Program-made: the position numbers and the translations under genes | The notes under the pieces: model-generated | Databases searched by the model: none | What the model saw: only the letters and a program-made list of their open reading frames with translations | What the model was told of the DNA's origin: nothing | Origin: Raillietiella orientalis | Lineage: Eukaryota | Reading direction: 5' to 3' | Length of the DNA: 64,000 nucleotides | NCBI GenBank assembly: GCA_036172245.1 | Contig: JAYWIR010000076.1 | Span: 62,001 to 126,000, forward strand | In this document: positions 5,902-64,000 of the stretch, in pieces | Position numbering within the stretch: position 1 is the first letter of the stretch | Layout of the letters: every line of letters starts with the position of its first letter

Positions 5902-6106
5902 TTATCACCCGGGTACGCCCGGGGCGTTTATTAATAAACTTTACATGCGTGGTACAAGGCCCCACCACGGCCGTAAACACAGGACCTGTCGGGACACCGG
6001 GACGCAGTCCGGCGTGGCACTCCCCGACAGCGAAGGGGGATGGGGATAAGACAAAAAGTAAAATAAAAAGAAACAAACAAAACGAAGTTGGAGGGCAGGG
6101 AAGGGA

Positions 6107-9100
6107 TCACTGTTCGCTGTGGAGAGGGCCCATCCGTCGAAGGAAGCCCTTGAGGTCAGTCCTCATATTCCCCAGTTGGGGCCATCCGGCAGCTCTTCGC
6201 AAGAAGCGTTGGGCATATGGGATGACATCCCTCGCGTGTTGACCCACTCCTTCCTTGTTGGTGTCGCTTCATGCCGCCACGATGCCTCGGACGCAGCACA
6301 AGGTTGCAAGGGCTGCGGCTGCCTGCAGGGCGTCCTTCACGAAGAGGGGCCGAAGAACGTCTCTGAGGGTGGTGCCCGTAGGGAGCCCGTAGGGAGCCCT
6401 CCGACCATTTTGGGAACGGTCGTCCCGAACCGTTCCCAAAATGGTCGGAGGGCAGCACAATCCACAATAAGGTGGGAGATTGATTCCCGCTCCCCGCACC
6501 TGGCATACGCAGAATCCACAGCTCCCCTCGTCCAGTGCTAGCGGCTCGCGTTGAAGGGTAGACCCCAGTGCAACAGGAGCAACGCCGACTCTTTCCACTT
6601 AAGAGGCAGGATCCTGGATTCCTGAAGAAGCGGGGGCCAATTCAGCACATCCATAGGGATGGCCAGCAGCTCGCCCCATCTTCTTAGTCCTCGCGGCTGG
6701 ACGCTCGGGGTCGTGGCGTTTGCCAGTTCTCCTGTTGTCCAGCCGCTGATCAACTTTTCGCGTCCCTCGATGCAGCAGGAGACTTGCCACCTTGGCGTCC
6801 GGCTGCTGTGAAGTGCCCTCTTCAGGAATTGCAGCGCCGTAGCTAGACAGGTCGTCTCTGCCCACGTGCATCTTGCTGGACTCTCCAGGAGATTCCGCAG
6901 CGTGCAGCGGGCGTAGGGGCTGCATCGGAGACGATTCCACGTCTCGTGGCTTGTCTTGTTAACCACTGCCCACGTTCCAATATTTTCCTCCAGCCAGGCG
7001 GGGGAGTTGGCGGGGCAGCAAACCATCCAGCTGTTCTCCTCGGCCAATGTTGCCATGCGCCCGAGCAGTAGGCCGCATCTTCGCATCTTCCGGCCACGGC
7101 TGAGAAGAAAAGACGCGAGTCCATCGCACAGGGACACACGGCTGGCCAGGAGGCGGGCTGGAGTGCACCAAGGGGTGCACCACATCTTCACTGCGATGGC
7201 GAGGGTTCGCCACCGCAGCTGCTTCTCCACGCGCTCCACCGTCAGGAGGCCAAGACCGCCGTCCCGACGCGGAGCGCACAAGTCCTTCAGTGGGAATCGC
7301 GGCCTCCCCTTGCCCCAAAGGGCGATACGGAGGAGGTCCTTCGTCCTCTTCTTGGATTCCACGGTGGGAGGGCAAACAAAAAGCAAGGGGCGGAGGATGG
7401 GGGCCGCGAAGGCGTTCCAAACCGCGGCCCGTTCCGGCAAGTGGAACTTGCCTTCCAGGAACGGGCCGATCGCCGTCTCGACTTCTTGGAGGCAGCTGGA
7501 CCACGCTTCCGCAGGGGAGTAGTCCCTCAACGGCACACCAAGGTACTTGAAGCACCTCGCCGTGGGGATCCCCAGACGGACCCAGTCCTGCTGCCCTGCC
7601 CACGCCGCACCTGTTGGCACAACCGACGACTTCGCCCTGTTAATCTGCAGTCCGGTCCCGCGGCTGAGCAGATCGAAGAAGTCTCCGACCGCCTTTGCCG
7701 GGGTGGACATTGACAACAAGAGCAGAAGATCGTCGGCGTACGCTGCTACGGCGGGCGTCCCGGGGCACGAGCTCGGCAAGGGGGCCAAAGTCACCCTCTA
7801 CGCTCTCAGCACCAACTCAAAGTAGGTGCTAAAGTGCAGGGGGCTGAGGCTGTCGCTCTGCCTTATGCCTTGCCGCACCGGCACGCCATACACCTTTTGT
7901 CCACTGAAAGAAATTGAGATTATCGCGTTCCGCCAGCAAGAGCGCAGGTAGGTAATCAAGGAGTGTGGGAAGCCCATGCGACCCAGAAGCTCCAAGAGGA
8001 GTTCCTGGTCAACACAGTCGAATGCCTTATGGAGGTCGACTGCGATCGCTAAGGCCCCCTTCCCGCATGAGGGTCCCTTCCCTGTCCCACTGGCGGCCCC
8101 AAAGTAGGGTTGCAAATTTTCCCTTTCCCTTCTTTCTTACTCCGCTGCGCGTGAATCCATGTGCTCGCGAAGAAGAGGTTGTCCTCCATACTTCGCCCGG
8201 GAACAGGGTACGTCTGCTCCGGGCTAATTATGGAATTGGACACCTGCCCCAATCGCGAAGCCCACAGCCCGGCAATTAACTTGGCGTCCGTGTTCACAAT
8301 CGTGATCGGACGCCAGTTGCAAAGTTTTCTGAGGTCTCCTCCCTTCGGGAGGAGCCTCACCGTGACTGACCGAAACGAGGAGGGAACATCGCCTTCGTCC
8401 CGGATTCGCCTTGTCAGCTCGAGCACCAAAGGGGCCACCTCTTCCGCGAAACTCTGAAAGAACTCCGCAGGCAAGCCGTCCTCCCCTGACGCCTTACGCC
8501 TCTTGAGCCTTTAGATATAGGCGAGAATTTCACCGGTCGTGAAAGGCTCATCGAGGTTTTCTCTCTCCTCCTCCCCTATCGCCACGGAACCACTCATGAG
8601 CAATCGCCGCGAGGCGTCATGTTCCGGTGGTGTTTTGGCGTAAAGGGAGGAAGAAAAACACCGCACGAGATTCCGTACCGCACACGGGGACGAACGCTCC
8701 CGGCCCATGTCATCCAGCATGCTGGCTGACCCGGATTGCCAGGCTTGTCGCTCGGCTCCGGCGCGGTATTCGGCCAGGCGACGGACATTAGGGTTCCTCT
8801 CGTGACGACGCGCGTGCAAATACGCGCGTTCGTTGCGAGCCTTTTCGCCGAATCCCTGGGGCAGACGTTGCACAGGGAACTGTTCGCAGAACTCCCGGAC
8901 CGAGTCCTTAAATAGGTCCCAATCCGCGAGACTCTGGAGGGTGACGCCTCGCAGGAATTCGCGAAGATGTTCTTCCGCTCCTGACAGGCTCGTCCAGTCC
9001 CCTAACATACGCCAATCCCTGGATGGCGGTCCCTTGTCGCGCGGGCGCATCTCGAAAACTAACCGGGAATGGTCCAACAGCGTCGATCCAAGTGTCCCTC

Positions 9101-12537: not shown

Positions 12538-14949
12538 TCTAAGTTGCTTGCCAAGCTTTGGGCTGAGCGACTGGGACGGGTGGCGGAATCCGTGGGAAGT
12601 CCGGAGCCGACATACGCTGTTCCCGGACGAAGCATGGAGGCCAACCTGTTCCTCGCCAGCACATGGTGGCAGTTGCAACAAAGCGATGATCAGGGAGGTC
12701 AAGAGAATCCTGGATTCTCCTCTGACCAGTAAGGGGACGCCCTTCATGGAAGAACCGCGCCCGGTGACCTTGCGGTCGCAGTCGATCTGCGTAAAGCGTT
12801 CGATTGCGTCGACCAGGAACTGCTTCTGGAGCTCCTGGAACGCTTGGGATTCCCGGCCGTCTAACGGGCTTACCTGCGCTCCTGCTGGCGCTTCGCTCTA
12901 ATAAACATCTCTTTTAGCGGCCGGCACGTGTACAACGTGCCGGTTCGGCGTGGCATAAGGCAGGGTGACAGTCTGAGCCCCATGCTCTTCAGCATGTACT
13001 TCGAGCTGGTGCTGAGGGCATACAGGGAGACTCTTGCAACCCTGCCAAGCTCGTGTCCCGGCACGCCTGGCGTGTCGGCCTACGCCGACGACCTTCTGCT
13101 CCTGCTCCCCGGGTCCACCCCGGCGTCGGCGCTCGAAGATTTCTTTGAGTTGATGCGCCGCGGGACGGGCCTCGAGGTGAACAGAGAGAAATCTTCCATC
13201 GTTCCATCATCAACACAACTTTTCAACCATACGGCGTGGGTCGGACGGCCGGAGTGGATCCGCTTGGGGATCGCCACGGGCAGGTGCTTGAAGTACCTTG
13301 GCGTTCCGTTGGCGGACTTCTGCGTTGCAGAATCCTGGTCCGACCGTCTCCAAAAGGTGGAGTTGGCGATCGGCCCGTTGCGGAACGGCAAGTTTTTCTT
13401 GCAGGTGCGGGCCGCGGTGTGGAACGCGTTCGCGGCCCCCCTCCTTCGCCCCTTACTTTTTGTTTGCCCCGCCCCTTCCATCATACGGAGACGGACCAAA
13501 GCTTTCTTGTCGACTGCCCTTGGGGCACAGCGAGATCGCGTGTCTGACTGAAAGACTGTTGCGCTCCACGCAGGGATGGTGGCTTGGGCCTTCTTACGTT
13601 AAAGTGCATCCAACTTCAAACAAGAATTCGAAAGTTAGCCCTTGCCGCTAGCTTATGGATGACGCCATTGTGCGATCCGGCACGGCTCCTCGCCAGAAGA
13701 GCGACCGGTTGCGCAGGATTGTCCTCGATCCTCGTGGCCTACCAGCGCAGCCTCTCCAGCTGTGGTCCCCCTTTGCGCCAGATGGTCGCCCTGATGAGGG
13801 AGAATACCTAAATCTCCTGCATCCCCGCGTACTGCACTGCGTGGCTTCAGGAGTCAGCTTCCGCGTGGGCTAAGATCAAGGGCACGAGCGAGGCGGAATA
13901 CAACTGCCTACGACGAGGACCGTACGCTCGACAGCCGCTGCAGGATATCATCAACACGCCCCGGAAGTTCCTGTGGGCTTCTTTCAGCCCCCTTGTCCCC
14001 GTTCTGTCCTACCCTAAAAACAGTAGGAGCAGCAACGAGCTGGCATCGTGGGAAGTGTGCTGCCTTATCCGAGGCAGGAAAAAACCTTTAAAGGCGTGGA
14101 CGAATCGGGAGCTCACGGACGCTGCCACCCCGAGCGTCCCGCCTCACGGACTTGCGCGCTGGGGTGAGCTGCTCGCAATACCTCCGGAGGAGGTGGAGTG
14201 TCCCCCAGCGTATTGGGATTGCGGCACACTTCCGTTGAAGTGGCAGGAGACGGCGTTGCTATTTCTGCACTGGGGACTGTTAAGCAGAGCACGCCTGTCT
14301 CACTGGACACTGGGGAATATGGATGCCAGCTGTGTCGAGTGCGGAGAAAGAGAAACCTTCCCGCATCTCACCCTCGAGTGTGTCGCCCTGGATGGACTCT
14401 GGAGTAGAATCTTCCCAATCCTCCATCTTCCAGTAGGCGACCCTAAGGAAATTTACCGTCGCCTCTTTCTGCGTGACGGCCTGCGCCCCGCTGCGTCTCT
14501 AGCAGTCCTCTGCTGCGTGCGCGGCATTGTGCAAAGGTGGCACGCCAGAAGAAGAGGCCCAAGATGCAGGGACGCCATCCACTGCACAACGATCTCTTCA
14601 GAGACGGCGACAAGGTGGCGTCTACCTTTCACAGTTAAAGCAGAACTTGACTGCATCCTCAACAGGATACGGAGGACCGACCCAGGCGCCCAGTGATCCC
14701 TTCCCTGCGCCCCCCTCTCCCCATACAACTGTTTCCCTCCCCGTTATCTCTCTTTTTGTTTGTTGTTGGTTCAGTTTTCCCTTCCCATGCGCCTCGGGAA
14801 TGGACCTAACCGGTCTATGCACCGCAACCGACACGTCAACCAAGTTAAGAAAACCAAGTGTTTCCCACAATTAACTTTTGAAAGACTTTATTATCTAATT
14901 TTTGTAGAAAATTAGAATAATAAATGCCCCGGCATATCCGGGTGGCAAA
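12538..14949 (+). mobile_element. 5'-truncated element, subfamily G (RT to 3' end; ORF2 stop at 14696)
   Basis: DLRKAFD, RQGDSLSP, AYADD and CVECGERETFPHLTLEC; ends AATAAATGCCCCGGCATATCCGGGTGGCAAA. Confidence 0.88.
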
Positions 14950-16660
14950 CGTCGGCTGGAGCCGAGCATTCCCGGTCCTGGTCGTCGAGCAGAACTGTCG
15001 CCCCTGACTGCCAGACCTGGCGCTCGGCCTTAGCCTTGTACTCGGATGATCGACCAACGACCGCGCGCCTGGAAAAGGAGCGGGCCTGCAGAAAATCTCT
15101 GCTGTTGGCTACGCCCTCTCCGAAGCCGCGTGGAAGCTGTTGCAAGGGAAACCGGCAGCAGAACTCGAGGACCGATCTTTTCAGATCGTCCCACTTTTCG
15201 AGCTCACTTATGGCAAAGCCGATGAGGTACTGACGAAGATGCTCAGCCGCCTCCGGGTGGCTTAGCCAGTCTGCCGGCATCCTCTAAAAACAGTTTGGAG
15301 GCCCCTTGCCTGGCGGGAGCAACTCGAACTCGAGCCTGTTGTGGTCTGAAAGCACAGACGGCACGGGACCTCTCCGACCCACTCAACAGAGCAAGTGTTC
15401 ATCAAGGTATACGTGGTCCGGCGTTGCTGCCATAACAGGGTCGCTAGCGAACAAGTTGCACGCGTGCACGGACGCGCACATCTCTTTCGCTAGCGAGTTT
15501 TCCCTTTTGTGGGATCTATTCTCGGAGGGAAGGTGGACGTTAAAGTCCCCCGCAATGAGATGGGCCACAGTAGAATGAGATCGAGTGAGCCACTGGCTTT
15601 GAAGGGTACCGAAGAACTCAATCCTTTTGGCCCATCGTCCAGCACCGCTCGGCGCGTACACGTTGGTTACGACAAGGTCGATCGAGTCCGACCACTTGAG
15701 TACAAGCTGTCCCACTCGGCCTTCCGTGTCGAAACGAACGCTGCGCACCGCTCTTGCCAAAGTTCCTCGCACGAGGAAAGCGACGCCGCACCTATAAAGT
15801 AGCGTTCCGCCCGCGCGCCGTTGGATTTCGGCAGCCTGCTCACCGGAGATGCTGTGAATCTCCTGCAGGAGCGTCAAGTCGAAGGCGCTCCGAGCGTCAG
15901 CCACTAGTCGCCTCTTCTCCTCGTGTTGGAGCCCGTTGACGTTCCAAGACGTTACGGCAACACGACGAGAAGACGCGATTGCCCTCATCACGGCTGGGAA
16001 AGCGAGGCCGTGGTGCTCGCCTCACCCGGCGAGCGGGCAGTAAGCAGCACGACGGGCTGGAGGGCGCGGTCGCCACCGGCCTCAACTGTGCTGCACGTAA
16101 TCGGGTGCTCCTCCCCGGGTGCAGAACCTGTGGGTTCCGGTGTGAGCACTCCTTGCTCCGCGGCGAGTGTGTCACGCCTCAGGGGATTCAGCCCTGCGGG
16201 CGCTCGCTCCCGCGCGAGTTACGCGTCGTTCAGCTGCGTTATGGGACTCCTTTGCGAAGTCTGATGCTCGCACGATCGACGTGCGCTTGCATCCGTCCGA
16301 TTGCACCGGAATGGTCTTCTCGGCGGTCACAGAAGCGGACTTCCACGCGTTGAAGGCGCTGGCTTTTTCCTTGGAAGAGGCATAAGCCGCGCGTGTTTTC
16401 GTATTCCCGCGACTGCTTTTTCCTTTGGAAGAGCTCAGGGATGGATGTTGCGAAGCTTTTTTTGGAGATTTTTCTTTCCTCCTCTCCACAACCTTCCATT
16501 CGCCTTCGCGATTTCCGGAGGCTTCCGCGACAGTAGTTGCGGAAACCTCCGGTATTTTCGCTGCGTTCTCTGGGGGCGTTGCTTTCGCTACGCCTTTTAA
16601 AGGCGGCAACGGAGTCACCTTCTTGACAGTCGGGAGATCGCTCCTCTCCTGCCCAGTCGG
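14950..16660 (-). mobile_element. 3' part of an F-related element (ORF1 C-terminus, endonuclease, linker); host of the tandem pair
   Basis: ORF 15383-15991 with WNVNG, LQE, NVYAP and GDFN; TGATG overlap at 15986-15990; joins 27928 across the TSD. Confidence 0.88.
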
Positions 16661-16831
16661 TGAACTTCCTCCGCGGCTCAAAGTATTGTGCTCTTGACAA
16701 CTAATTAGTTAATTGTGCTCGTGTGTGCCCGGAGAGGGGAAGTTTTCCAGAAGAAACAAAAAAAAAGAAGCGGCGAGGACATCGCGGCAAAAGACCTGCA
16801 GTGGTCCCGTGCAGCAAGACCAGCTGCCAGG

Positions 16832-18620
16832 ATGCAGGCACCTAGAAGAGGAGTGGAGAGACCGTCGTCCCCCATGGAAGCCATGGAGGTAACGTGCGGC
16901 AACGGCGATGCGGTGGCAGGCATGCCGAGGATCGCGCCCGCGGCGGGCTTTGCTGCGCCGGCGGCGGCGATGCCAAGGGTCGTGCCCGCGGCAACGACGG
17001 CGGAGGTCGTGCCCGCGGCGGCGACGCCGACGATCGTGCCCGCGGCGGGGAAGGTCGCGCCTGCCGCGGCGATGCCGAGGGTGCCGCCCGCGGCGGTAAC
17101 GGCGGCAACGTCGAGGTTTGCGCCCGCGGCGGTGGCGTCCCAGGAAGGACCCGCGGGCGTCCACGCGGTGCAGGGAGCGACGCGATCTTGTTCGGCTGCG
17201 GCGTCGCAGCCCTTTTCTTATGCGTCGGTGGCGGCTGGACAGGCGAGTGTCCACCCACCTAGGAAATTCGGTAAGCCGCTTAGCGGAAAAGTACTAAAAG
17301 TGGACCGACCAATAGACGAAATAGGCCCCAACGTGAAGCCCATTATCTTCAAGACGGGGCTAATAAAATTTAATAACATCAGGGAGGTCTATTTGTCCCT
17401 CGACAAGACGGACATAGACTTTGATCGCATTCAGGCGATCATTCCATCGAACAACGGGTTCACAGTCTTTACAGACTGTGAAAACATTAGAGAGCGATTG
17501 ATCCAGAAGGGGATCAATATACAAGGACGGATGGTTTGTGGTATTGGCGAGATGCCATACACAACCGTCTTTTTAAACGGCATCTCCATCCTCACACCGC
17601 AACTAGCGGTGTGGAATTACTTGGAGCAGTTTGGGAAAGTTCTGGACCTTGATTTCCAGAACTTCTCTGGAAACATATTTTCTGGCGACATGATCGCCAA
17701 GATGAAGTTGAGGAAGGGAGCGGTGATCCCTGGATTGGCCGTTATTGACGAACAATCCCAGGGAGTGAATGTGCGTTACCGGCAACAACCGGTATTCTGC
17801 ACCGGGTGCAAGCAGTTCGGTCACAGGGCCGGCTCTTGCCCAACGTGTTGTTGTTTCCGCTGCGGCAAAGTAGGACATCAAGTCCGAAACTGCCCGCATC
17901 CGGAGGTGTGCTCCTTCTGCAAGAAACACGGACATGCGAAATGGAGCTGTCCGGAGTTTGAAAACTGCAGATGGATTCGAGGTCTCTCTCCCGTGAGAGA
18001 GAGAAACATCAAGGAGGCCGAACAGCCTCAGAAGGCAGGAAGGCAGAAAAAAAGTGAAAGAAGCTGTCCCGGTGTCGGCGGACGGCTTCATAGAAATGGG
18101 AAAGAAGGGAAAGAGGAGGATGCTCGTCAAGGAGCAAGGAACTCCTCAAATCCTGGAAGCAGCAGAGCAGGAAGGCGAGAAGATGGAGGTAGCGCAGGAA
18201 GGCGCGAAGGAAGAGAGACAGGAAGCCACTAAAGTGTCGCAGGAGGCTCTGCAGACTACGGAGGAGTTGGCAATACTGGCGGAGGAAATCATGGAGGTGC
18301 AGAGCGGTCCTCAGCAAGAGAAAATCTTGCAGAAGATCTGCACTGCACAAGAGAACATCAACCAGGTGGTGGAGGTCGCTGAACGCGAGAAGTTAGAGGA
18401 ACAGCTTCTCGACGTGAAGGCGAACTTCTGCGCCAAGGTCGAGATAGAGGCACTATCTCGAAAATTGATCGCGCAGGCGGAACACTCTACGGAGGAGGCG
18501 GAAATTACCGACCTCACAGGAACGGAGAGTGACGCCGGCAGCGAGAAACCCGCTGCTTCTTCATTGTCTGGTAGAGCACGCTCTCTCAGACAGAAGAAGC
18601 TCAGGAAGGCCAAAAAATAG
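16832..18620 (+). pseudogene. ORF1 gag-like protein with three CX2CX4HX4C knuckles; one frameshift in an A-run near 18050
   Basis: CTGCKQFGHRAGSC, CFRCGKVGHQVRNC and CSFCKKHGHAKWSC; copy 2 is open across the frameshift. Confidence 0.9.
16921..17140 (+). repeat. Degenerate about 27-nt GC-rich coding tandem repeat (AAAMPRVVP-like) in ORF1
   Basis: Recurring (C)GTGCCCGCGGC units; same array at about 22555-22775. Confidence 0.8.
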
Positions 18621-18633
18621 GACTTCCCCTTGT

Positions 18634-21600
18634 ATGGCCTCTTCCCTATCGACCGCCAGGAGGATTAACATCGCCTCCTGGAACGTAAACGGTGTGGTCG
18701 ACCAGGGAAAAAGAAGAAGGATTGTGCGGACCATCGCACAACAAGACATCGTGTGCCTGCAGGAGTCCCACAGGATGGGTCTCGAGATAAGCCAGCGAAT
18801 GGAACGGCGATTCAACGGGCAGATGTTCGTCAACGAAGGAGAACGGAACACGAAGGGTGTGGCGGTGCTAATAAAGAACCACTTAGCCCCCACTATTCTG
18901 GAAGTGTTCTGTCCCCAGCCCGGACGAATCATCGGCGTGCGACTGGCCTGGTCCGCGACTGTTCACCTTATCCTGGTAAACGTGTACGGGCCGCACAGGC
19001 TAAAACATCGTTGTGCGGAGGCGCTGCATGCAACACTCCGGCAAAAGGTCGCCCCTAAGGACGTCGTGATTGTTGCTGGCGATCTCAACATCTTGGATGT
19101 GATCATTCATTCGGAAGACGCCAGAGGAAGGACGGCGTATCGACGGCTATCCGAGGAGTTCGGACTGGTCTGGCGAACAGCAAGCCACAAGCCAATCGAT
19201 CACGTTCTGCACAGCACCGAACTTGGGAACCGCATCCAGGGGTTTCGCGACACTATGACTACGGTGTCCGATCACCCCCTGGTGCGGTTTTCCCTAAGAA
19301 CGGAGAATCCTCGGCGGAGGCAAGGCACCAGGGCAGCGCTCATCAGCATGCCCGCCTGGTTCGAAACCCATCCCGGACATCAGGCTGTCCTGGAGGCGAT
19401 TCTGAGGGCAACAATAATCCGAAGAGTCGCCGACTGGGACAGCCTGAAACACAGGATACACCTGTTTGCGAAAATGCAGTTCGGGGATAGGCGCTTGAGG
19501 CAAGAGGCGTACCGGGAGCTGAACATCCAAGATCGCTCCCTCTCAAAGTACTTCGATCAGTACGAGAGTCGGTACGTCCTCAATAACATAAAAGGGGAAG
19601 TCGGCGTGCTGGAGAAGAGAAATCTGGCAACAGATATCTTCTGCATCCAGTACGACGGCCAAAAGCGACAGTCGTCCGAGGACATCGTGGATGCCTTTCA
19701 CAGGCATTACACGAAACACTTCAGGCGACAACAGCTGTGTCGCTCTAGTCAACAGGCCTTCTTGAGCTATCTCGAGAAGAGGATCGACGACCTCCAGCGG
19801 AACAGACTGGAGGAGGAGTTCTCCGAAGAAGAGGTGAAGACTGCGTTTGGGCAACTTCGCAAGGACGTGGCAGCGGGCCCTGACAGTGTACCCACCACGC
19901 ACTATCAGCGGTACCTGCACGCCTACCTGCGCTTGTTCCACCAGTTGACCCTCTGCATCCGGGAAGAAGGCAGACTACCTCAGTCCTTCTACGAGAGTCG
20001 GATGAGATTGCTGCCGAAAGGAGGCGACTCTACCCAGATCGCCCAATGGAGGCCAATCTCGATTCTAAACTCCGATGCCAAGTGGTTGGCGAAGATCTGG
20101 TCCAACCGCTTAGGCAAGGTCATGTCGAGGCTGATCTCTCCGGTCCAAACATGTGCAGTCCCAGGACGACACATGTCGGACAATGTCAAGTGTGCCCAGG
20201 ACACTGTTGGACTCAGTCGATACGTCGGCGAGAACCTGGTGCTGGTGTTCACTGACATGAAGAGGGCCTTCGACTCCATCGACCACGGGATGCTGCTGAA
20301 GGTTCTGGAGAAGCTAGGGCTTCCGGAACACTTCAGCAACTTCGTGAGGGCGGTACTCCAGAACTAGTACTGCCGGATCAAGATCAACGGCCAGGAAGCG
20401 GCAGCAATCAGGATGGAACGAGGAGTCCGACAGGGCGACTCGCTAAGTCCGATGCTGTTCGTCATCTATATGGAGGCGTTGTCGTCCTTTATCGAGAAGA
20501 GCGGACGACTAAGCGGGATTACCATCGATAGCCAGCGTCTTACCCATCTGGCATACGCCGATGATCTACTCTTTTTCATCAAGGGAGAGAAAAATCAGCG
20601 TGCGTTTCTGGATGTGGTGGACCTGATGGAACAGGGCTTGGGCTTAAAAATCAATTCCAAGAAGAGCCAGCTTTTGCCCGTCGGAATACTGGATCTCTCC
20701 ACTCTAACGGGTAGTGGATTCCGTACGGTGGACACGGCCAAGTACCTGGGAGTCTACATCGGCGACGGCTCTGCGTCGAAGCTGCTGTGGAAGGAAATCC
20801 TGGGGAACACGGCCAAGGAAGCAGCCAAGTACACCCGAACGGACCTTGGGATGAAGCGAAAGGCCAACATATGGAACGGAGTACTCCTTCCGAAAGTGCT
20901 CTTCGGGGCGGCCTTCGCGAGGATGAACAAGGAAACCACGAGGGAGTTCGACAAGCTGCAGAGAAAAACACTGTGGGGCCACTATCGCCCAAGAGTAAGA
21001 CTGAAACCCCTGTGTCGTCCCAGGGAAGAAGGCGGTTCCGGGATGAAGTCGCTTGCACATTCCATGGAAATCATGGATACGCGACACATCCTGGACATGG
21101 CCACTTACTGGGATGACTGGCCGTATGCGGCGCACCGGGCCTACGCGTTGTTGCTTAACAACTCGGAAGGCCTGATGACTGCGCTGCTAGGCAAAGTAGG
21201 GGAATGGATAACAATCGACCCGACCTGGAGGAGGAAGCAACCGCTGGTGCGGAAGCACCAAATCAAGATCGTGCCGCGAAGCAGGGAACTCTGGCAGGAC
21301 GAGTCCATCCTGGTGATCCCTTGGTTGCTTCCTGTCCCGCCGGACACGAGAAGCTGGATCTACCAGCGGTCCAGAGTTACCCTACTGCAAATCCAGGAGT
21401 GGAGGCGAGGAGGCTACCTACATCAAACACGTATACTTCGGTATACAGAGATGATGTTAGGAAGGTTTACCCACAGGACCCGCGAAGTGTGGTTCAACCA
21501 CAACGACTTCGCATGGTCGAGGGTAACCAGAACAAACCTCCGAAGGCTTATCCAAGAAAACGACCGCGACACCAGTGCCCTCCAGGAAGCCACCGAACGC

Positions 21601-22146
21601 TACGGGAGTGAACGGTTCAACCTGTTATCGATCGGAACGACGCTCTGGAGGAGTGACCTTCCACCGGGCACCCAGGATGACCTCCTGATGTTTTATCACG
21701 GAGGAATCCAAAGTGGGTCCCGATTGCAGCACTTCACAGGAAGACGGGAAGACCGAGACTGCGCAGCATGTGGAGACGACGACACGAGACTTCACGTCTT
21801 GACGTGTCCCACACTGCTGCATGACTGGCTGATTCTGAAAAGGATCATAGGACTTACCAACAAGTCCGTTATGGAGATCCTCGCCGGGATGTTTCATGGG
21901 GATGGTAATGTTCCCTGTTACAATCCCATGGTGAGGACGACCCTCTTCATCACCGCCATACTTGTGCGGTGGTGGAAAATGAGGAAAGCCAGGAGAGCCG
22001 CACCACCGATGGAGATCCTACAAGGGCTCTTGAAGAGGGAAATCGGCATCAGGAACTGCGGGAAGATCCACGCCTGGACGTACTGATTCATCCTGAAGAG
22101 GATCCAGGACGACGCCCGGGACCATCCAGCTGGAATTCCCCCCTGA
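18634..22146 (+). pseudogene. ORF2 APE endonuclease/RT in a single frame, with premature stops at 20365 and probably 22084
   Basis: WNVNG, LQES, GDLN, IDHV, SDH, WRPISI, RQGDSLSP, AYADD and CAACG; copy 2 has CAG and CGA at the two stop positions. Confidence 0.92.
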
Positions 22147-22465
22147 AAAGCAGAACTCTAGTGCAACCCAAGGACCCCCAAGTGCAAAATGTTTGTATTG
22201 AGTGAATGAGAGTGCGAATGTAAATTTTGTATTTTTATAGAAAAATAAACTTACCCCACCCCTTGTGGGACTTGGGGAAACCTGCCGAGTCGGTGAACTT
22301 GCTCCGCGGCTCGAAGTATTGTGCGCTTGACAACTTAATCAGTTCATTGTGCTCGTGTGTGCCCGGAAAGGGGAAGTTTTCCAGAAGAAACAAAAAAAAA
22401 GAAGCGGCGAGGAGATCGCGGCAAAAGACCTGCAGTGGTCCCGTGCAGCAAGACCAGCTGCCAGG

Positions 22466-24253: not shown

Positions 24254-24266
24254 GTCTTCCCCTTTT

Positions 24267-27785: not shown

Positions 27786-27927
27786 GTGCAGAACTTGTGA
27801 GAACCCAAGGACTTCATAGTAATAAAAAAAAGTGCTAATGCTATGGATGAGATTGTAGTGTGAATGTTTTTATAGAAAAATTTTAGAAAAATAAATTTAC
27901 CCCTCCCCTTGTGGGACTTGGGTAAAA

Positions 27928-44954: not shown

Positions 44955-45133
44955 TCCTTTCCCTGCCCTCCAACTTCTTTTTCTCTGTTTATTTTTTTTA
45001 TTTTTCTTTTTGTTTTGTCCCCATCCCCCTTCGCTGCTGAGGAACGTTACGCTGGGCTGCGTCCCGGCGTTTTGGCAGGTCCAGTGTATATAGCCGTGAG
45101 CGGGGCCTTGTACCGCGGATGTAGAGTTTTAGC

Positions 45134-45164
45134 AATAAACGCCCCGGGCGTACCCGGGTGTAAA
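45134..45164 (+). terminator. 3' terminus: AATAAA followed by a GC-rich stem-loop and AAA, with no poly(A)
   Basis: AATAAACGCCCCGGGCGTACCCGGGTGTAAA directly abuts the TSD. Confidence 0.75.
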
Positions 45165-49128: not shown

Positions 49129-49270
49129 TCCCTTCCCGGCCCTCCAAACTTTTTTTTGTGGTTTGTTTTTCTCTTTTATTTTATTTTTGTTTTTTCCCCC
49201 ATCCCCCTCCACTGCCGAGGAGAGCCACACCGAACTGCGTCCCGGTGTCCCGGCAGTTCCGGTATTGCGT

Positions 49271-49295
49271 GGCCATCAGTGGGGCCTTGTACCAC
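49271..49295 (+). other. Predicted H-type RNA pseudoknot in the 3' UTR
   Basis: GGCC-ATCA-GTGG-GGCC-TTGTA-CCAC; covarying copies in seven other 3' UTRs. Confidence 0.7.
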
Positions 49296-49366
49296 GTTCT
49301 GTATTGACCGTTGAAATGTTTTTAATAAACGTCCTGGGGTATCCGGGTGGCATCGCCGAAAGCCGG

Positions 49367-52098: not shown

Positions 52099-53911
52099 TT
52101 GTCACCCGGGGACGCCCGGGGCGTTTATTTGTAAACTCTACATACGTAGTACGAGGCCCCACCACGGCCGTAAACACGCGACCTGTCGAAACACCGGGAC
52201 GAAGCCCGGCGTGGCACTCTTCGACAGCGAAGGGGGATGGGGATAAGACAAAAAGAAAAACAAAAAGAAACAAACAAATAAAAGTTGGAGGGCGGGGAAG
52301 AGATTACTTTTCTCTGTGGGGAGGGCCCATCCGTCGAACGAAGCCCTTGAGGTCAGTCTGCATATTCCCCTGTTGGGTCCATTCGGCAGCTCTTCGCAAG
52401 AAGCGTTGGACATACGGGATGACATCCCTCGCTCGTGGACCCACTCCTTCATTGTTGGCGTCGCTCCATGCCGCCACGATGCCACGGACGCAGCACAAGG
52501 CTTCGATGGCTGCGGCGGGCTGGAGTGCGTCCTTCACGAAGAGGGGCCGAAGAACGTCTCTGGGAGTGCTGCCTGTAGGGAGCCCGAGGGTCGTCCCGAA
52601 CCGTTCCCAAAGGGGTCGGAGGGCAGCACAATCCACAATAAGGTTGGAGAGCGATTCCCGCTCTCCGCACCTGACACACGCAGGATCCACAACTCCTCTT
52701 GTCCAGTGAGAGCGGCGTGCGTTGCAGGGTAAACCCCAATGCAACAACAGCAACGCCGACTCTTTCCAATTAAGGGGCAGGATCCTGGATTCCTGAAGAA
52801 GCGGGGGCCACTTCAGCACATCCATAGGGATGACCAGCAGCTCGCCCCATCTTCTTAGCCCTCGCAACTGGAAATCGGTGTCGTGGCGTCGGCCAGTTCT
52901 CCTGTTGTCCAGCCGCTGATCAACTTCTCACGTCCCTTGATGCAGCAGGAGACTTGCCACCTTGGCGTCCGGCTGCTGTGAAGTGCCCTCCTCAGGAAGG
53001 GCAGCGCCGTAGCTAGGCAGGTGGTCTCTGCCCACGTGCATCTTGCTGGACTCTCTAGGATCTCTAGGAGATTCCACAGCGTGCAGCGGGCGTAGGGGCT
53101 GCATCGGAGACGATTCCACGTTTCGTGGCTCCTCTGGTTAACCGCTACCCACGATCCAATATTCTCCTCCAGCCAGGCGGGGGAGTTGGCGGGGCAGCAA
53201 ACCATCCAGCTGTAATCCTCGGCCAATGTTGTCATGCGCCCAAGCAGTAGGCCGCATCTTCGCATCTTCCGGCCACAGCTCAGAAGAAAAGACGCGAGTC
53301 CATCGCACCGGGACACACGGCTGGCCAGGAGGCGGGCCGGAGTGCACCAAGGGGTGCTCCACATCTTCGCTGCGATGGCGAGGGCTCGCCACCGCAGCTC
53401 CTTCTCCACGCGCTCCAGCGTCAGGAGGCGAAGACCGCCGTCGCGACGCGGAGCGCACAAGTCCTTCAGAGGCACTCGGAGCCTCCCCTTGCCCCAAAGG
53501 GCGATACGGAGAAGGTCCTTTTTCCTCTTCTTCCATTTCACGGTGGGGGGGGCAAACAAAAAGGAAGGGGCGTAGAATGGGGGCCGCGAAGGCGTTCCAA
53601 ACCGCGGCCCGTTCCGGCAAGTGAAACTTGCCTTCCAGGAACGAACTGATCGCCGTCTCGACTTTTTGGAGGCAGCTCGACCACGCTTTCGCAGTGGAGT
53701 AGTCCCCCAACGGCACACCAAGGTACTTGAAGTACCTCGCCGTGGAGATCCCCAGACGGACCCAGTCCTGCAGCCTTGCCCACGCCGCATTTATTGGCAC
53801 AAGCGACGACTTCGCCCTGTTAACCTGCAGTCCGGTCCCGCGGCTGAGCAGATCGAAGAAGTCTCCGACCGCCTTTGCCGGGGTGGACATTGGCAACAAG
53901 AGCAGAAGATC
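52099..53911 (-). mobile_element. Subfamily C element, 3' portion (from just after YADD to the 3' end)
   Basis: Colinear with 5902-7731; 3' UTR and terminal hairpin. Confidence 0.9.
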
Positions 53912-55893: not shown

Positions 55894-55909
55894 AGAACGA
55901 CACGGGGCA

Positions 55910-57269: not shown

Positions 57270-57282
57270 TAGGGGAATAGAA

Positions 57283-57731
57283 GGGTAATCGGCAAAGGAT
57301 CTTCCTATATGGAAGTAGCCGCCAGATTGCCCCAATTGACCAAGCATACGAAAAGAGATCTCGCTAGCATACGCCGACGGTTTACAGACGCTACCCAACA
57401 GCGCACCCGGTGAACCTTTCCCCTCGCCCCCTTCAAATTTTTTTCTTTTTTCCACTTCCGCCCAATTAGGCTCCGGAACATTTTAGGTGCTCTCTATTTG
57501 AATCCCCGTGAGTGCGGAGCTTCACCAAGGACCCGTTACCCCTCCCTCCAGATTTTTTTTTTTCTTTTGTGTGTGTTTTATCCCTCTACTCCCTCAGTGT
57601 TGTTGGAAGCGGTTTGTTAACCAGGCCTGAGTGCCGCTAACTTCTCTTTGCTCCTTGTCATTTCTTTGGTTAACGACATCGTCTTTGACAGGTTTATTTT
57701 CAATAAGCGCCCCTGCGTGACCGAATGAAAA
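57283..57731 (+). mobile_element. Subfamily F 3' end (ORF2 terminus and 3' UTR)
   Basis: Similar to 5072-5516, including TAGGCTCCGGAACATTT. Confidence 0.85.
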
Positions 57732-58154
57732 ACTTCATCGTCCGCCTGCTGTCGGAAGCGCCCGACATCAGAGCACAACTGGTCAACGAGTCGTGTGCGT
57801 CGATGCACGCGCGCAACTTGTTGGCCAATGAAGCCCACGTGAGACGCAGAATCGACCACGTGTTCCTCGATAACCACCTGTGGACGCGGGTGGGGACTCG
57901 AGACGCACTTGCGTCGGAGCTGTCCGATCACCATCGGCTAGTGTTCACCATCCATCTGCGCGACAGAGGTCCATCCACCGAAGCGTGGCGCCTGCTGGGA
58001 GACTGGTTGCGACTCGCAGGAGCGGGCGAATATCTGCGTGCATTCCTGCGTGGTTGCGAACTGCAGACTCTTGCTCAATGGGACAAAATAAAACGCTCAG
58101 TGCGAGAGTCCTGCGACCAGTTTCCCCTCCATCAACATCCTTCAAGTTACGGCA
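57732..58154 (+). mobile_element. Subfamily J endonuclease C-half, bounded by the 'DFN' and 'GFG' junctions
   Basis: VRLLSEAPDIR, RIDHVF and SDH; homologous to 33358-33781 (reverse complement). Confidence 0.88.
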
Positions 58155-59415
58155 ATGCCACCCGGGTACGCCGGAACGTTTATTAAAAAACATTTTTTCC
58201 GTCATTCAAGAACGTGGTACAAGGCCCCACTGAAGGCCACGCAATATTAGACCCGCCGGAACACCGGGACGCAGCCCGGTGTGGCTCTCCTCGGCAGTAG
58301 AAGGGGATGGGGAGGAAACAAAAATAAAATAAAATGAAAAAACAACAACAAATGGAGTTTGGATAGCCGGGAAGGGATCACAGAGAACTGCTGGGAGGGA
58401 CCATCCTTTGCAGGATGCCTTCGAGTTCCATTTTCATTCTTCCCATATAGGGCCATCGTGTAGCTCTCTGCAGGAAGCGAACAGCATACTCGATAACGTC
58501 CCTCACGATGCAATCTTCATCTTCGGCATCACTCCAGGACGCCACGATACCACGAATGTAGCAAAGAGCTGCCAAGGCTAAGGCAGGACTGAGGGCGTCC
58601 CGCACTAAGAGAAGACTTTACACGCCTCTGGGGTTGTCACCATCCGGTATACCAAGGGCCGTTCTAAGACGATACCAAAGAATCCGGACGGCAGAGCAAT
58701 CAACTAAGAGGTGGGGGAGCGAAGCCCGCTCCCCACACCTGGCACACGCAGGATTTACTCTTCCCCGCGTCCAGTGGAAGCGGCGCGCGTTGCAGGGTAG
58801 ACCCCAATGCAGCCACAGAAGCGCCGATTCTTGCCACTTAAGGGGAAGAATCCTGGATCCAAGTAGAACCGGGGGCCACCTCAGGTCGTCCAATCGAATG
58901 CCGAGCAGCTCGCCCCATCTTCTTTATCCACGCGGCTGGAGACTAGAAGTCGTCGCATCGGTCAACTCTCCCATGGTCCAGCCGCTCATCATCTTCTCTC
59001 TGCCTGCGATACGGCAGCGGACTTGCCACCTTGGCTTCGGGCTTTAGTGAAGCGCCCTTTGGAGGAAGGGCATCGTCGTAACAAGGGGTGTGCCTTCCGC
59101 CCACGTGCAACTCGGTGAAATTTAATAATTTCACGCAGAGTTCGGCGGGCGTAAAGGCCGACTCGCAGGCAGTTCATCCGGTCTTCGCACTTCTGGTTCT
59201 GCTTGGTTTAGGTGCCAGCAGTCTCCTTCAGCCAAGCGGAGGAGTTGGCGGTGTCACAAACCATCCAGTCGTTCTCTTTCGTCAGGGTTGCCATGCAACC
59301 GAGCAGTAGACCGCATCTTCGAATCTTCTGGCCTGGGCACAGAAGAAACGATGCGAGTCCTTCGCAGCGGGACAAACGCCTGGCCAGAAGGCGGGCCGCA
59401 GTGTACAGTACGACG
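58155..59415 (-). mobile_element. Subfamily D 3' portion
   Basis: Reverse complement is colinear with about 48090-49353. Confidence 0.9.
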
Positions 59416-60008
59416 TTTTCACCCGGTCAAACCGGTGCGTTAATTGAAAAACTAACAGTATTTGCGGTACAAGGCCCCGCTGCGGCCAATAGTTCTATGG
59501 AGCCGTCTGGTGGTCGGTGTACAGACCGAAGCAAAACTCCACGTCAACGGATGAGGTTAGGGAAAAAACGAAAATGAAAAAAATTAAAGAGTAGAAACAC
59601 TGGTCATTGGGAGGGCAAGAAAGGGATTACTGTCCGTTTTGTGGAGCTTCCATCTTTGCAAGATGTCGACGAGGTCCTGGTACAGATTTTCCAGGTGGGG
59701 CCATCGGGATGTTATTTGCAGAAAGCGAGCTGCATACTCCATGGCATCCCTTTCGTTAACATTCTCTGCTTCTTCGGATCCACTTAAAGCTGCCACAATA
59801 CCGCGTACGCAGCAGAGGGCTGCTTTAACAGGGGCTGGCTGCAGGACGTCCCGCACGAAGAGGAGCCGATAAACGTCTCTGGGAAGACTACCTTCCAGGA
59901 TCCTTAAGGTGAAAGCGAAACGGTCTCACAGGGGCCAGAGGGCAGCACACTCATCTAAAAGTTGCGGAAGGCTTTCCCGTTCCCCGCACCAGGAACAGTT
60001 TGCGGCAT
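59416..60008 (-). mobile_element. Short 3' fragment of a further subfamily (H)
   Basis: ORF2 C-terminus homology, pseudoknot motif and terminal CCGGGTGAAAA. Confidence 0.8.
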
Positions 60009-60009
60009 T

Positions 60010-60727
60010 CCGACGGATGACCTAAAGTGGCCCCCATTGTTCATTGATTCATCAATCCTCCCCTAAAGTGGCAGCAAACGGAGCTGTTGTTGTTGCACTG
60101 GGGTCTTCCCTGCAACGCGCGAGGCCACCACTGGACGTGGGGGAATGTTGAACAGAACTGTGCAGTGTGCGGGGAGAAGGAATCCCTCCCCCATCTGTTA
60201 GTGGACTGCGGTGCCATCCGGCCCTTGTGGGAACGTCATGCTACGGCACTCCCTATGCCGGTCGGCTGTACCCCCAGAGACGTTCTGAGACTCCTCTTCG
60301 TGCGATAAGCCCTGACACCAGCCTCAGCCCTGGCAGCACTTTGCTGCCTTGTGGCCGCGTAGAGCGCAGCCAACAGAGGAAGCAGGCACAGGGAACCCAT
60401 CGTACACGCTGGTAGATACCTGCGAATTGCGATCGGCTGGTCCTATCTAGGAACAATGAAGAGGGACCTTCAGGGAATCCTCGAAAGGATGGTCTCTTCC
60501 TCCAGCGGGCTGTGATCCCTTCTTGGCCCTCCAAATAGTTTCTTTTCGTTAATTTCTTTTCTTTTTCTTTTCGTTTTCACACCCTACCCCCTCCGCTGCC
60601 AAGGAGAGTCAAGCCGCCTTGAGAGCCGGCTTCCCGGCAGGTCCACAGAACTATTGGCCATAGCGGGGCCTAGTACCGCGAAAACATAGTGTTCAGGAAT
60701 AAACGCCCCAACGAGACAGGGTGAAAA
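60010..60727 (+). mobile_element. Short 3' fragment (Cys/His finger to 3' end)
   Basis: CAVCGEKESLPHLLVDC; ends AATAAACGCCCCAACGAGACAGGGTGAAAA. Confidence 0.85.
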
Positions 60728-62264
60728 CTTCCCCGTGTCGTTCTAGAGAGCGGACGTGGTGTGGCATCGCTCCAAGGAATGGTTAGAGGGAAGCTTTTCG
60801 TTAATTGTCTGGTGTGTTTGAGCACCGGTGTCCCATGGCAGCAATGCCTGAAGACACCGCGATGGAAGCTGGAGGATGAGAAGCGACATGCTCTCCTGCA
60901 CCAATGAAAGTGGGGCGTCCGCTTCCACGTAATCCGGGGCAATTGTTCCATTGTAATCGGGGGCAACCGCCCCTTCGAGACTCTCATCGCCATTAGCTTT
61001 GAAGGCTCCGGAGGCAGGTAAGGCCGATCCAGACATCGAAAGTGCGTCCTCTTCAGCGTAGGCGCCACCAAAGAAGACGGGACGTGAGTCTTAGAATCCC
61101 AGGAGGCGCATCCGGATCAATAAGGAGGCGAATAAATCGGCCCCGGAGGAAAAAGTCGGCAGCGTGGGAGGCAAGGGTGGGAATATCTCATTCCCCGACA
61201 CCGTGCAGCTAGCGACCATGGAGGAGGATGTGCAGGTGGGTGAACCCCTACTTCCTCTGCAAGGTCCCGACGACGAATGGTCCTTAATGGAGGAGGGAGA
61301 AGCGGTGCGCGACGCAACCCCTCCTCCTAGCGTCCCGCCCGACAAGAGGGCGGGAGCCCCATTGCCAATTTCCCAGGATTAACACCTGGACTCCCCTGTC
61401 GCCGTAGGATACGCGTAGGCTGCTGGAACGTCAACGGGCTGCGCGATGACGGCAACAGGCGGGACACAACCGACATCCTGCGTGACTTCGACGTGACACT
61501 CCTGCAGGAGATCCACGTGATCACCGCGTACAACGCCCAGGAGATCGAAAGGATCGCAGAGGGTCGTCTGTGTTGGCAATGCGGCGCTCGCAACACATGT
61601 GGCGTCGCGTTTCTTATCATGCCAGCAGTCGCTTCCTTCGTCAAGGACGTACGATTCGACAAGGACAGTTGGGTTGGCCAGCTTATCCTTAGGTGGTCCG
61701 ACTCGATAGATCTTGTCGTGACTAATGTGTACGCTTCGATCGGAGGACGCCGGTACGGGGAACGTTCCCGGTTCCTCGATACCCTGAAGCACGACTGGCT
61801 GGAGGAAACAAACGTACGAAAGGCACATCTGATCAGTGGGGATTTCTACATCAGCCTGCTCTCGGGTGTGCCTTGCAGACAAAAAGACGCAACCACCGAG
61901 TTACGCGCCGCTATGCATACGCGCAACTTGCCGGGGGACCTAGCAAAAATTACTCAAAGCGTAGACCCCGTCTTCCTTGACGCCGACCTGTGCCCACGGG
62001 TCGGCAGACCAGGGAAACTTTCGTCAACGCTATCGGACCACTTGCGGTTGATAATAGAGATTATGCCACGCGACAAAGGACCACCATCCAGGGCGTGGCG
62101 TATACCAGGGGACTGGACGCGCATCTCCGGTGCAGCGGAACATCTCCGTCAGTTCCTCTGAAGTGTCATACTCCGAAACCTCGAAGACTGGGACCGCATG
62201 AAGATCTCGGTATGCGAGTTCTGCGAGAATTTCCCTTTGCACCGCCTGCCCCAGGAATTTGGTG
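60728..62264 (+). mobile_element. Subfamily I element, 5' portion with an internal ORF1 deletion (about 61000), cut at the 'GFG' site
   Basis: Matches 55910-55650 and then 54460-53915 (reverse complement); EN ORF 61493-62161. Confidence 0.88.
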
Positions 62265-64000
62265 TTACAACCCGGGTACGCCCAGGACGATTATTAAAAA
62301 AAACTCTACAATTGCGGTACCAGGCCCCGCTCACGGCCTTATGCACACGATCTACCGGTACGCCGGGACGCAGCCCGGCGTGGCACTCCCCGGCAGCGAC
62401 AGGGGATGGGGAAAAAACAGAAGTGAAATAAAAAAACCACAAACAAACAAAAGAGGTTGGAGGGCAGGGAAGGGATCATCGTTCGCTGAGAGGAGGGCCC
62501 ATCCGTTGAAGGAAGCCCTCGAAGTCCATCCGTATCTTCCTTAGTTGGGGCCATCGAGCAGCTCTCCGCAAGAAGCGTTGGGCATATGGGATGACATCCC
62601 TCGCGTGTTGACCCACTTCTTCCTTGTTAGTGTCGCTATATGCCGCCACGATGCCACGGACGCAGCACCAGGCTGCAAGGGCTGCGGCTGGATGCAGGGC
62701 GTCCTTCACGAAGAGGGGCCGAAGAACGTCTATAGGGAACTGCCCGTAGGGAGACCGAGGATCGTACCAAATCGTTCCCAAAGGGGACGAAGGGCAGCAC
62801 AGTCCACAATAAGGTTGGAGAGCGATTCCCGCTCTCCGCACCTGACACACGCAGGATCCACAACTCCTCTTGTCCAGTGAGAGCATAGTGCGTTGCAGGG
62901 TAAACCCCAATGCAACAACAGCAACGCCGACTCTTTCCAATTAAGGAGTAGGATCCTGGATTCCTGAAGAAGCGGGGGCCACTTCAGCACATCCATAGGG
63001 ATGACCAGCAGCTCGCCCCATCTTCTCAGTCCTCGCAACTGGACGCTCGGTGTTGTGGCGTCGGCCAGTTCTCCTGTTGTCCAGCCGCTGATCAACTTCT
63101 CGCGTCCCTTGATGCAGCAGGAGACATGCCACCTTGTCGTCCGGCTGCTGTGAAGTGCCCTCCTCAGGAAGGGCAGCGCCGTAGCTAGGCAGGTCGTCTC
63201 TGCCCACGTGCATCTTACTGGAATCTCCAGGAGATTCCGCAGCGTGCGGCGGGCGAAGGGGCTGCATCGGAGACGATTCCACGTTTCGTGGCTCCTCTGG
63301 TTAACCGCTACCCACGTTCCAATATTCACCTCCAGCCAGGCGGGGGAGTTGGCGGGGCAGCAAACCATCCAGCTGTTCTCCTTGGCCAATATAGCCATGC
63401 GCCCGAGCAGTAGGCCGCATCTTCGCATCTTCCGGCCACGGCTCAGAAGAAAAGACGCGAGTCCATCGCACTGGGACACACGGCTGGCCAGGAGGCGGGC
63501 TGGAGTGCACCAAGGAGTGCTCAACATCTTCGCTGCGATGGCGAGGGTTCGCCACTGCAGCTGATTCTCCACGCGCTCCAGCGTCAGGAGGCGAAAACCG
63601 CCGTCGCGACGCGGAGCGCACAAGTCCTTCAGAGGGACTCGGGGCCTCCCCTTGCCCCAAAGGGCGATACGGAGGAGGTCCTTCGTCCTGTTCTTGGATT
63701 CCACGGTGAGGGGCATACAAAAAGCAAGGGGCGGAGGATAAAGGCCGCAAAGGCGTTTCAAACCGCGGCCCGTTCCGGCAAGTGAAACTTGCCTTCCAGG
63801 AACGGGCCGATCGCCGGCTCGTCTTTTTGGAGGCAGCTGGACCACGCTTCCGCAGGGGAGGAGTCCCCCAACGGCACACCGAGGTACTTGAAGCACCTCG
63901 CCGTAGGGATCCCCAAACAGATTCAGTCCTGCTGCCCTGCCCACGCCGCACCTATCGGCACAACCGACGACTTCGCCACTGTTAACCTGCTGTCCGGTCC
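62265..64000 (-). mobile_element. C-like element, 3' portion, running off the window
   Basis: Colinear with 5902-7660 and 52099-53840. Confidence 0.9.

Follow-up and report, generated by a model that had tools for sequence, protein, structure and literature searches.

A strongly constrained RNA motif in the structured 3′ tails of a retrotransposon family of Raillietiella orientalis, with a covarying stem and a possible pseudoknot

What a short motif that recurs near the 3′ ends of retrotransposon copies does for these elements, and in what form it folds, is the question raised by a 64,000-nucleotide (nt) stretch of the Raillietiella orientalis genome (GenBank assembly GCA_036172245.1, contig JAYWIR010000076.1, positions 62,001–126,000 of the forward strand), referred to below as the window. 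The motif is 24–25 nt long and follows the pattern GGCC-N3–4-GYGG-GGCC-TNGTA-CYRC, in which the two GGCC words could pair as stem 1 and GYGG with CYRC as stem 2. A previous reading made from the letters of the window (the sequence-only reading) had described it as a covarying H-type pseudoknot in the 3′ untranslated region (UTR) of eight elements and had offered docking of the reverse transcriptase (RT), 3′ protection or processing as possible roles. The whole analysis rests on eight motif copies in this one 64-kb window; the "eight elements" are indeed eight copies, which fall into four lineages of a single family (A, B, C and D, with 4, 2, 1 and 1 copies; Table 1). The motif is a real, strongly constrained RNA element within a structured 3′ tail of a long interspersed nuclear element (LINE). 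From its setting we infer recognition of the tail by the RT of the element as the function, with pairing of stem 1 as a possible component.

The window is GC-rich (52–63% per 2 kb) and consists almost entirely of transposon copies, with nested repeats piled up throughout. RVT_1, Exo_endo_phos or zf-CCHC domains were found in 9 of the 14 long open reading frames (ORFs) scanned, and RT, apurinic/apyrimidinic endonuclease (APE)-type or CCHC zinc-knuckle domains also in three of 11 additional ORFs. The motif-bearing elements are retrotransposons that lack long terminal repeats (non-LTR, LINE) and have a CCHC ORF1 and an APE endonuclease. Protein searches with their ORF2 returned only remote homologues (≤30% identity over about half of the length); the five best all contained APE, RT and zf-RVT domains, and a protein-cluster atlas placed ORF2 among RVT_1/zf-RVT clusters of mixed eukaryotes, in agreement with the domain reading. 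The family is called L1-like here by domain content alone, and no named clade is assigned. A separate protein search with a different LINE family of the window gave two matches at 27%. The end of ORF2 and its stop codon were read directly in two copies, E1 and E5. In E5, 130 codons are open and include a C-x2-C...H...C knuckle, after which a stop within GTRATCC lies ∼137 nt upstream of the motif; the same reading frame is present in E1 with one internal stop. Since the ORF2 stop precedes the motif by this distance, the motif lies in the 3′ UTR of retrotransposon elements, as had been proposed.

The exact pattern had seven matches in the window and none in 100 dinucleotide shuffles. Seven of the eight copies of the sequence-only reading were recovered exactly where it had placed them; in the eighth (E2), an A at position 45092 turns the 5′ arm into AGCC (45092–45095), which leaves an A·C mismatch in stem 1. 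The core GGGGCCTNGTAC matched with zero mismatches at exactly the eight motif sites and nowhere else in the window; when up to two mismatches were allowed, 22 matches were found, of which the 14 outside the motif sites are at chance level (18.3 expected). Recurrence of the copies reflects homology and not chance, and the informative test is the pattern of substitutions. Outside the window, pattern scans gave three matches in bacterial records among genome contigs (taken as chance from their titles alone), one bacterial match in metagenomes, also due to chance, and one match among viral sequences, in a GC-rich contig without the hexamer, again taken as chance. A search of the whole window against Rfam at the gathering score produced no match, and at E-values up to 5 over the region 58100–62700, which holds four copies, the sole match was a chance one located elsewhere, so the absence of a known RNA family had been judged correctly.

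To evaluate constraint on the motif, a maximum-likelihood tree was built from the final 600 nt of each of the eight copies, with the motif columns left out. The tree contains two fully supported clades, (E3,E8) with support values of 100/99 and (E1,E5,E7,E2) with 100/100, and the terminal branches of the eight copies measure 0.04–0.38 changes per site. The number of Fitch changes per column is 1.17 in the ORF part, 1.24 in the rest of the UTR and ∼0.1 at the 18 fixed positions of the motif, where only two changes occurred in total once the 5′ GGCC had been re-aligned (the A in E2 and a T in E5). The motif is under strong purifying selection. Because MAFFT, when given the flanks, misaligned the 5′ GGCC of E9 and E10, the counts that concern the pseudoknot were taken from a GGCC-anchored alignment. 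There, the 5′ GGCC is fixed in seven of the eight copies, and its flanks (5 nt upstream, 3–4 nt downstream) differ freely between copies in both sequence and length, in line with the free variation of loop 1 noted earlier. In loop 3 (UNGUA), the G, U and A are invariant and N is free (U, C, G or A), with UGUA present in five of eight copies.

The motif is part of a larger arrangement. The last ∼140–150 nt of the eight copies were aligned as the tail, and a consensus fold was calculated with RNAalifold. The nested consensus comprises a long two-part stem-loop of 16 pairs (SL1), the 4-base-pair (bp) helix GYGG/CYRC, i.e. stem 2, and a 5-pair terminal GC hairpin just after the hexamer. The order in the tail is SL1, motif, linker, AATAAA, terminal GC hairpin and 2–5 A, without poly(A). 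Cells of the consensus are paired in 93% of cases, versus 32–48% when the partners are slid; changes on both sides are seen in 7 of 25 tail pairs, which was reached by none of 500 shuffles, and 6 of the 16 consensus pairs of SL1 have changed on both sides. The distance from the end of the motif to the hexamer is 16–29 nt, not 20–35 nt as had been given, and the hexamer reads exactly AATAAA in six of eight copies (AATAAT in the copy at 62314, E7, and AATTAA in the copy at 59464, E9). The element ends ∼25 nt beyond the hexamer, and all tails read finish with GGGTG and 2–5 A-rich bases joined straight to unrelated flanking sequence.

A covariance model scored the eight motif-bearing tails at 118–147 bits each, and together with a profile search it revealed the same architecture in five more diverged tails, giving 13 in total (73 bits for E11, and 25, 22, 20 and 11 bits for the other four). 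Each of the 13 has the stop, a tract rich in T and another rich in C, a stem-loop, a hairpin region that varies, the hexamer and the terminal hairpin. The GGCC motif is limited to the eight copies, and the more distant tails carry AT-rich hairpins at that place. E11 has there a plain hairpin, GTGGCCGGA/TCCAGCCAC (32845–32872, +), with nine pairs, one C·A mismatch and a 7-nt loop, and it retains the leading GGCC and the trailing CCAC/CCGC. Among the tails in the window, no copy detached from ORF2, such as a partner short interspersed nuclear element (SINE) would provide, was found; all were joined to ORF2 sequence.

Two further observations concern the ends of elements. In several tails, AAUAAA forms the 3′ arm of a U-rich/A-rich hairpin (5922–5935, −, TTTATTAATAAA in E1), and long AT hairpins hold the hexamer at 14876–14926 (+) and 32893–32916 (+), so judging from these predicted folds the hexamer may be masked or presented by RNA structure. 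A second, unrelated-looking LINE family with APE and RT (16648–27939) has ends at 22240–22285 and 27885–27925 composed of AATAAA, a C/G hairpin CCCCACCCCTTGTGGGACTTGGGG and AAA; by its sequence, it appears to use the same end plan with different letters.

Within the motif, stem 2 is the helix with evidence of covariation. All 32 cells pair across the eight copies, and the states of the helix are those listed in the sequence-only reading: GTGG/CCAC in three copies, GTGG/CTAC, which pairs via a G·U wobble, in one, and GCGG/CCGC in four. Pair 2 is accordingly split evenly between C-G and U-A, four copies each, and pair 3 is G-C in seven and G·U in one (E5). Copies with U-A occur in both supported clades, and forcing them into one clade costs 34 log-likelihood units (approximately unbiased (AU) test, p=1e-4). 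Since these copies do not form one clade, the exchange between C-G and U-A arose at least twice, which upholds the compensatory change claimed for this stem. In a scan of all 4-bp helices, stem 2 was one of four among 4438 in the UTR that were fully compatible and contained a double change, the other three being located in SL1, and the ORF part contained one among 8534. Column-shuffled UTRs had a mean of 0.15 such helices, and four were reached in 0 of 300. The single helix of the coding part is a hairpin in ORF2, GGGGAGCG..CGCTCCCC (6476–6494, −; 44593–44611, +; and homologous places), where the C-terminal zinc knuckle is encoded; it is compatible in eight of eight copies with one double change and could be a coding coincidence.

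Two other accounts of the stem 2 letters were tried and rejected. Decay of CpG could have produced both GCGG→GTGG and CCGC→CCAC, each a CpG transition. The observed/expected ratio of CpG in the whole window is 0.99 (that of TpA, which is strongly depleted, is 0.56), and in seven pairs of related copies transitions affect 7.2% of CpG sites versus 8.1% of other G/C sites; there is no sign in the window of CpG-methylation decay or of CpG-directed repeat mutation. CCAC could also have a more distant partner upstream, a GTGG that overlaps the 5′ GGCC, but this is present in lineage B and E11 only and so is not family-wide.

The explanation that we favor is that the tail would be a recognition and positioning module for the RT of the element itself, of the stringent LINE type. 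In this view, the L1-like, APE-type non-LTR family would carry in its 3′ UTR an RNA element that acts in cis, the motif, which is the best-conserved piece of a multi-helix tail. The ORF2 protein would recognize the whole tail, not the motif alone, and once bound it would place reverse transcription precisely at the RNA's 3′ end ("stringent" template recognition). Within the motif, stem 2 would form, and the 9-nt loop GGCC-UNGUA and the upstream GGCC would be constant because they are contacted, either through pairing of the two GGCC words with each other, which would create a 24–25-nt H-type pseudoknot, or through binding of the protein. Stringent recognition by ORF2 would explain the precise ends without poly(A). 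We assign to this explanation as a whole a probability of roughly 55%.

Several observations weigh against it, and those that concern the fold of the motif have to be set beside three ways of reading its two stems. The covariation consists of one base pair and about two events in eight copies of four lineages; at least one comparable helix appeared somewhere in the column-shuffled UTR in 14% of trials; and, within 49 columns, the non-tree split of stem 2 is also shown by columns 550 and 570 of the 600-nt alignment, so a short recombination tract that carried both stem 2 sites is possible. These points favor a reading in which stem 2 is under no constraint, its linked T/A and C/G states go back to common descent, to a short tract of recombination or template switching, or to chance, and the motif is a primary-sequence site or contains stem 1 only. 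Such a reading is improbable in our view. In loop 1 and the flanks, E1 and E5 match lineage A and not B, and column 557, inside the 550–570 stretch, disagrees with the tract and contradicts a long one; a single clade of U-A copies is rejected by the AU test; the sole other change in the arms, from C to U in E5, is wobble-compatible, with no disruptive change in 32 cells; and CpG hypermutability is absent. Single-sequence folds also count against our explanation, as they give stem 2 a pairing probability of ≤0.29 in all eight copies. On balance, we regard stem 2 as probably real. Stem 1 is a different matter: three of its pairs are invariant, one is broken in E2, and no compensatory change was found, so that in the eight copies covariation was detected for stem 2 and not for both helices. 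The arms are in crossing order (5′ arm of stem 1, 5′ arm of stem 2, 3′ arm of stem 1, 3′ arm of stem 2) in all eight copies, with 4 bp in stem 1 in seven and 3 bp in E2, no nucleotide ever separates the 5′ arm of stem 2 from the 3′ arm of stem 1, loop 1 is 3–4 nt long and loop 3 is always 5 nt long. A 5′ GGCC fixed between freely varying flanks looks like a pairing arm with a loop attached, and this, together with the constant spacing and the constant loop 3, argues for a full H-type pseudoknot in which the two stems form together and are coaxially stacked. Loops that span the 4-bp stems of a pseudoknot have steric minima, and the lengths found here fit the usual values (as a rule of thumb, not a computation). 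The energy of the stem 1 hairpin by itself is −4.6 to −8.1 kcal/mol and that of stem 2 by itself −1.4 to −5.4 kcal/mol, so the stabler local hairpin and the covarying helix would both be satisfied only by a pseudoknot or a switch. A crude estimate for the pseudoknot itself is −3.6 to −7.6 kcal/mol, about equal to stem 1 alone (sum of stacks and a Dirks-Pierce-style penalty of 9.6 kcal/mol, without coaxial stacking). In E1 and E5, which have lost one base of loop 1, a 7-bp nested hairpin in another register (CGUGGUG/UACCACG) takes part of a stem 1 arm and is the predicted minimum, and the minimum free energy (MFE) folds keep stem 1 whole in three of eight copies, with a fourth retaining three of the four pairs. 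The MFE folds disagree between copies, and neither stem was judged by them. Both arms of stem 1 are the palindrome GGCC, and any two copies of this word would therefore pair. With the plain hairpin of E11 at the motif position also against it, the pseudoknot is possible, somewhat short of even odds; of the earlier "covarying pseudoknot", the covariation of one stem 2 pair stands, and stem 1 is left with a break and equivocal energies. The remaining way to read the motif is that stem 2 is a simple hairpin whose 9-nt loop is conserved, with the GGCC words as single-stranded protein contacts or paired between molecules, as a kissing dimer or with a target. Stem 2 as the sole covarying helix of the motif and the invariant G, U and A of UNGUA plus GGCC, as expected of base-specific protein contacts, agree with it, and so do stringent LINE proteins, which read both stem and loop (PMC4176376). 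The self-complementary GGCC would permit intermolecular pairing, for which retroviral dimerization loops provide an analogy. A hairpin of 4 bp that closes a 9-nt loop is, however, weak alone and rarely seen in the ensemble, given the energies and pairing probabilities above, and GGCC/GGCC within one molecule, 7–8 nt apart, should beat pairing between molecules, which makes this reading rather unlikely.

At the level of function, the main rival of RT recognition is a role in 3′-end formation, i.e. that the motif is a processing or stability element that, from upstream, either enhances cleavage and polyadenylation at the hexamer or binds a host factor, with no part in reverse transcription. The place of the motif, which lies upstream of AAUAAA at a short and constant distance, fits this role equally well and so counts against our explanation too, and the element ends at the place expected for cleavage. 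Known upstream elements for 3′-end processing include UGUA, which lies within loop 3 in most copies. On the other side, the U of this UGUA occupies the one freely varying position of the loop, the hexamer is less conserved than the motif, the insertions lack poly(A), and related lineages possess the hexamer and the terminal hairpin without the motif, so the motif is unneeded for a 3′-end function common to them. We consider a processing role to be an unlikely substitute for recognition by the RT. Protection of the type provided by exonuclease-resistant RNAs (xrRNAs) found no support, and no Rfam match to known xrRNA models was obtained; known xrRNA folds are longer than 24–25 nt. Among the roles that had been proposed, RT docking seems by analogy to fit the context best.

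The analogy is with stringent LINEs, in which the ORF2 protein binds a 3′ stem-loop (PMC4176376), and two of their features, a conserved structure at the 3′ end and precise 3′ ends without long poly(A), are found here. As in UnaL2 of eel and ZfL2-1/-2 of zebrafish, an APE-type LINE has a conserved RNA structure within the last ∼100–150 nt of its 3′ UTR, and insertions end precisely without long poly(A); in those elements, reading of stem and loop by the cognate ORF2 protein initiates reverse transcription (PMC1636434, PMC4176376). UnaL2 and ZfL2 belong to the L2 clade, whereas the present family is L1-like by domain content and shares no sequence similarity with them. Instead of a single hairpin, its tail contains several helices and a possible pseudoknot, with AAUAAA between the motif and the terminal hairpin, and unlike in UnaL2/ZfL2 no partner SINE is present among the tails in the window and recognition is proposed from sequence. 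Specific structured 3′ ends have also been reported for L1-clade LINEs of monocots and green algae (PMC3472496). These resemble the present family in combining L1-type domains with a conserved structured 3′ end in a clade usually deemed poly(A)-dependent; they differ in that they were defined by tails shared with SINEs, with no pseudoknot described in the available text, and the present ORF2 is ≤30% identical to anything found.

A second comparison is offered by R2. The protein of vertebrate A-clade R2 binds a pseudoknot-hinge-stem loop in the 3′ UTR at the initiation of target-primed reverse transcription, and breaking a pseudoknot pair abolishes activity, which compensatory restoration rescues (10.1101/2024.11.11.623112, also PMC12180492). 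The order of parts (pseudoknot, linker, terminal stem-loop and a few single-stranded 3′ bases; see also PMC12222951) is the same here, with a pseudoknot that is only putative, and both R2 and the present family appear to insert at specific sites. In contrast to R2, which has a restriction-like endonuclease and one ORF, the present family has an APE endonuclease and a CCHC ORF1, and the R2 hinge is 6 nt long, whereas the present linker is 16–29 nt plus the hexamer. No gathering-score match to the Rfam family R2_retro_el was found in the window, and the protein, with its APE endonuclease, is not of the R2 type. The resemblance to R2 is one of layout and not of descent. In the portions of the literature that were searched, 3′ UTR pseudoknots of LINEs are described only for R2. 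That a 24–25-nt H-type pseudoknot and a terminal hairpin together make up the RT docking module of an APE-type, L1-like, site-preferring LINE, arisen independently of R2, is a tentative and rather doubtful proposition. If true, it would make the family the first APE-type LINE for which a pseudoknotted 3′ tail is described, and a case of convergent use of one RNA layout by unrelated endonuclease classes; if the pseudoknot is not true, the tail would be one more structured stringent LINE tail and ordinary. Template choice by LINE RTs is known in structural detail for R2 only and more coarsely for a few L2-clade elements, and a compact conserved motif in an L1-like element would give a small, easily mutated handle on template recognition in another clade, in an element that pairs exact 3′ ends with an apparent target preference. 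The coordinates of the features are collected in Table 1.

Table 1. Motif copies, tail modules and related features in the window (positions counted from the first letter of the window)
Feature	Position	Strand	Remarks
Motif copy E1	5949–5972	−	Lineage A; GGCC GTG GTGG GGCC TTGTA CCAC
Motif copy E5	52146–52169	−	Lineage A; GTGG/CTAC, pair 3 G·U
Motif copy E7	62314–62338	−	Lineage A; GCGG/CCGC
Motif copy E2	45092–45116	+	Lineage A; AGCC for GGCC; GCGG/CCGC
Motif copy E3	49271–49295	+	Lineage B; GTGG/CCAC
Motif copy E8	58214–58238	−	Lineage B; GTGG/CCAC
Motif copy E9	59464–59487	−	Lineage C; GCGG/CCGC
Motif copy E10	60656–60679	+	Lineage D; GCGG/CCGC
ORF2 stop codon TGA of E1	6107–6109	−	3′ UTR from here to ∼5902
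SL1 of E1	5986–6030	−	16 pairs in family consensus
AATAAA hexamer of E1	5927–5932	−	Inside palindrome TTTATTAATAAA
Terminal GC hairpin of E1	5908–5923	−	CCCGG/CCGGG, then TGATAA = element end
Full 3′ tail module of E1	5902–6040	−	Covariance model
Equivalent tail modules	52099–52237, 62265–62406	−	
Equivalent tail modules	45025–45164, 49203–49353	+	
Further equivalent tail modules	58155–58306, 59416–59555	−	
Further equivalent tail module	60588–60727	+	
E11, ninth, diverged tail	32776–32932	+	Same architecture; plain hairpin GTGGCCGGA/TCCAGCCAC at motif position; 73 bits
Diverged tail of related LINE lineage	35969–36146	−	Stem-loop, AT-rich hairpin, hexamer, terminal hairpin, A-run; no GGCC motif
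Similar diverged tails	14822–14948, 5376–5516, 57588–57731	+	No GGCC motif
Insertion junctions of E1, E5 and E7	near 5859/5874, 52066/52071, 62249/62254		Intact site near 42200–42215

The target preference is suggested by three copies of lineage A. E1, E5 and E7 are antisense insertions at the same ORF2 nucleotide (GGATTCGGCG^AGGG) of three older copies. That they are segmental duplicates of one insertion was rejected as the simplest reading: their flanks are 75–79% identical and the inserts 88–90%. Since the flanks are more diverged than the inserts, the sequences suggest independent hits on a preferred target site.

Elements are also found in arrays. E2, E3 and E4 are arranged head to tail with junctions at 45164/45167 and 49353/49354, each 3′ end abutting the next 5′ end, and a 5.6-kb head-to-tail pair is located at 16648–22293 and 22281–27939 with the junction at about 22280. 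The 5′ ends of elements (CCTCCAAGGC.., CGCCGAAAGCCGGTG.. and CCTGCCGAGTCGGTG..) resemble the antisense ORF2 target, which hints, at the level of sequence resemblance, that the LINEs of the arrays may target a sequence that they themselves carry at the 5′ end.

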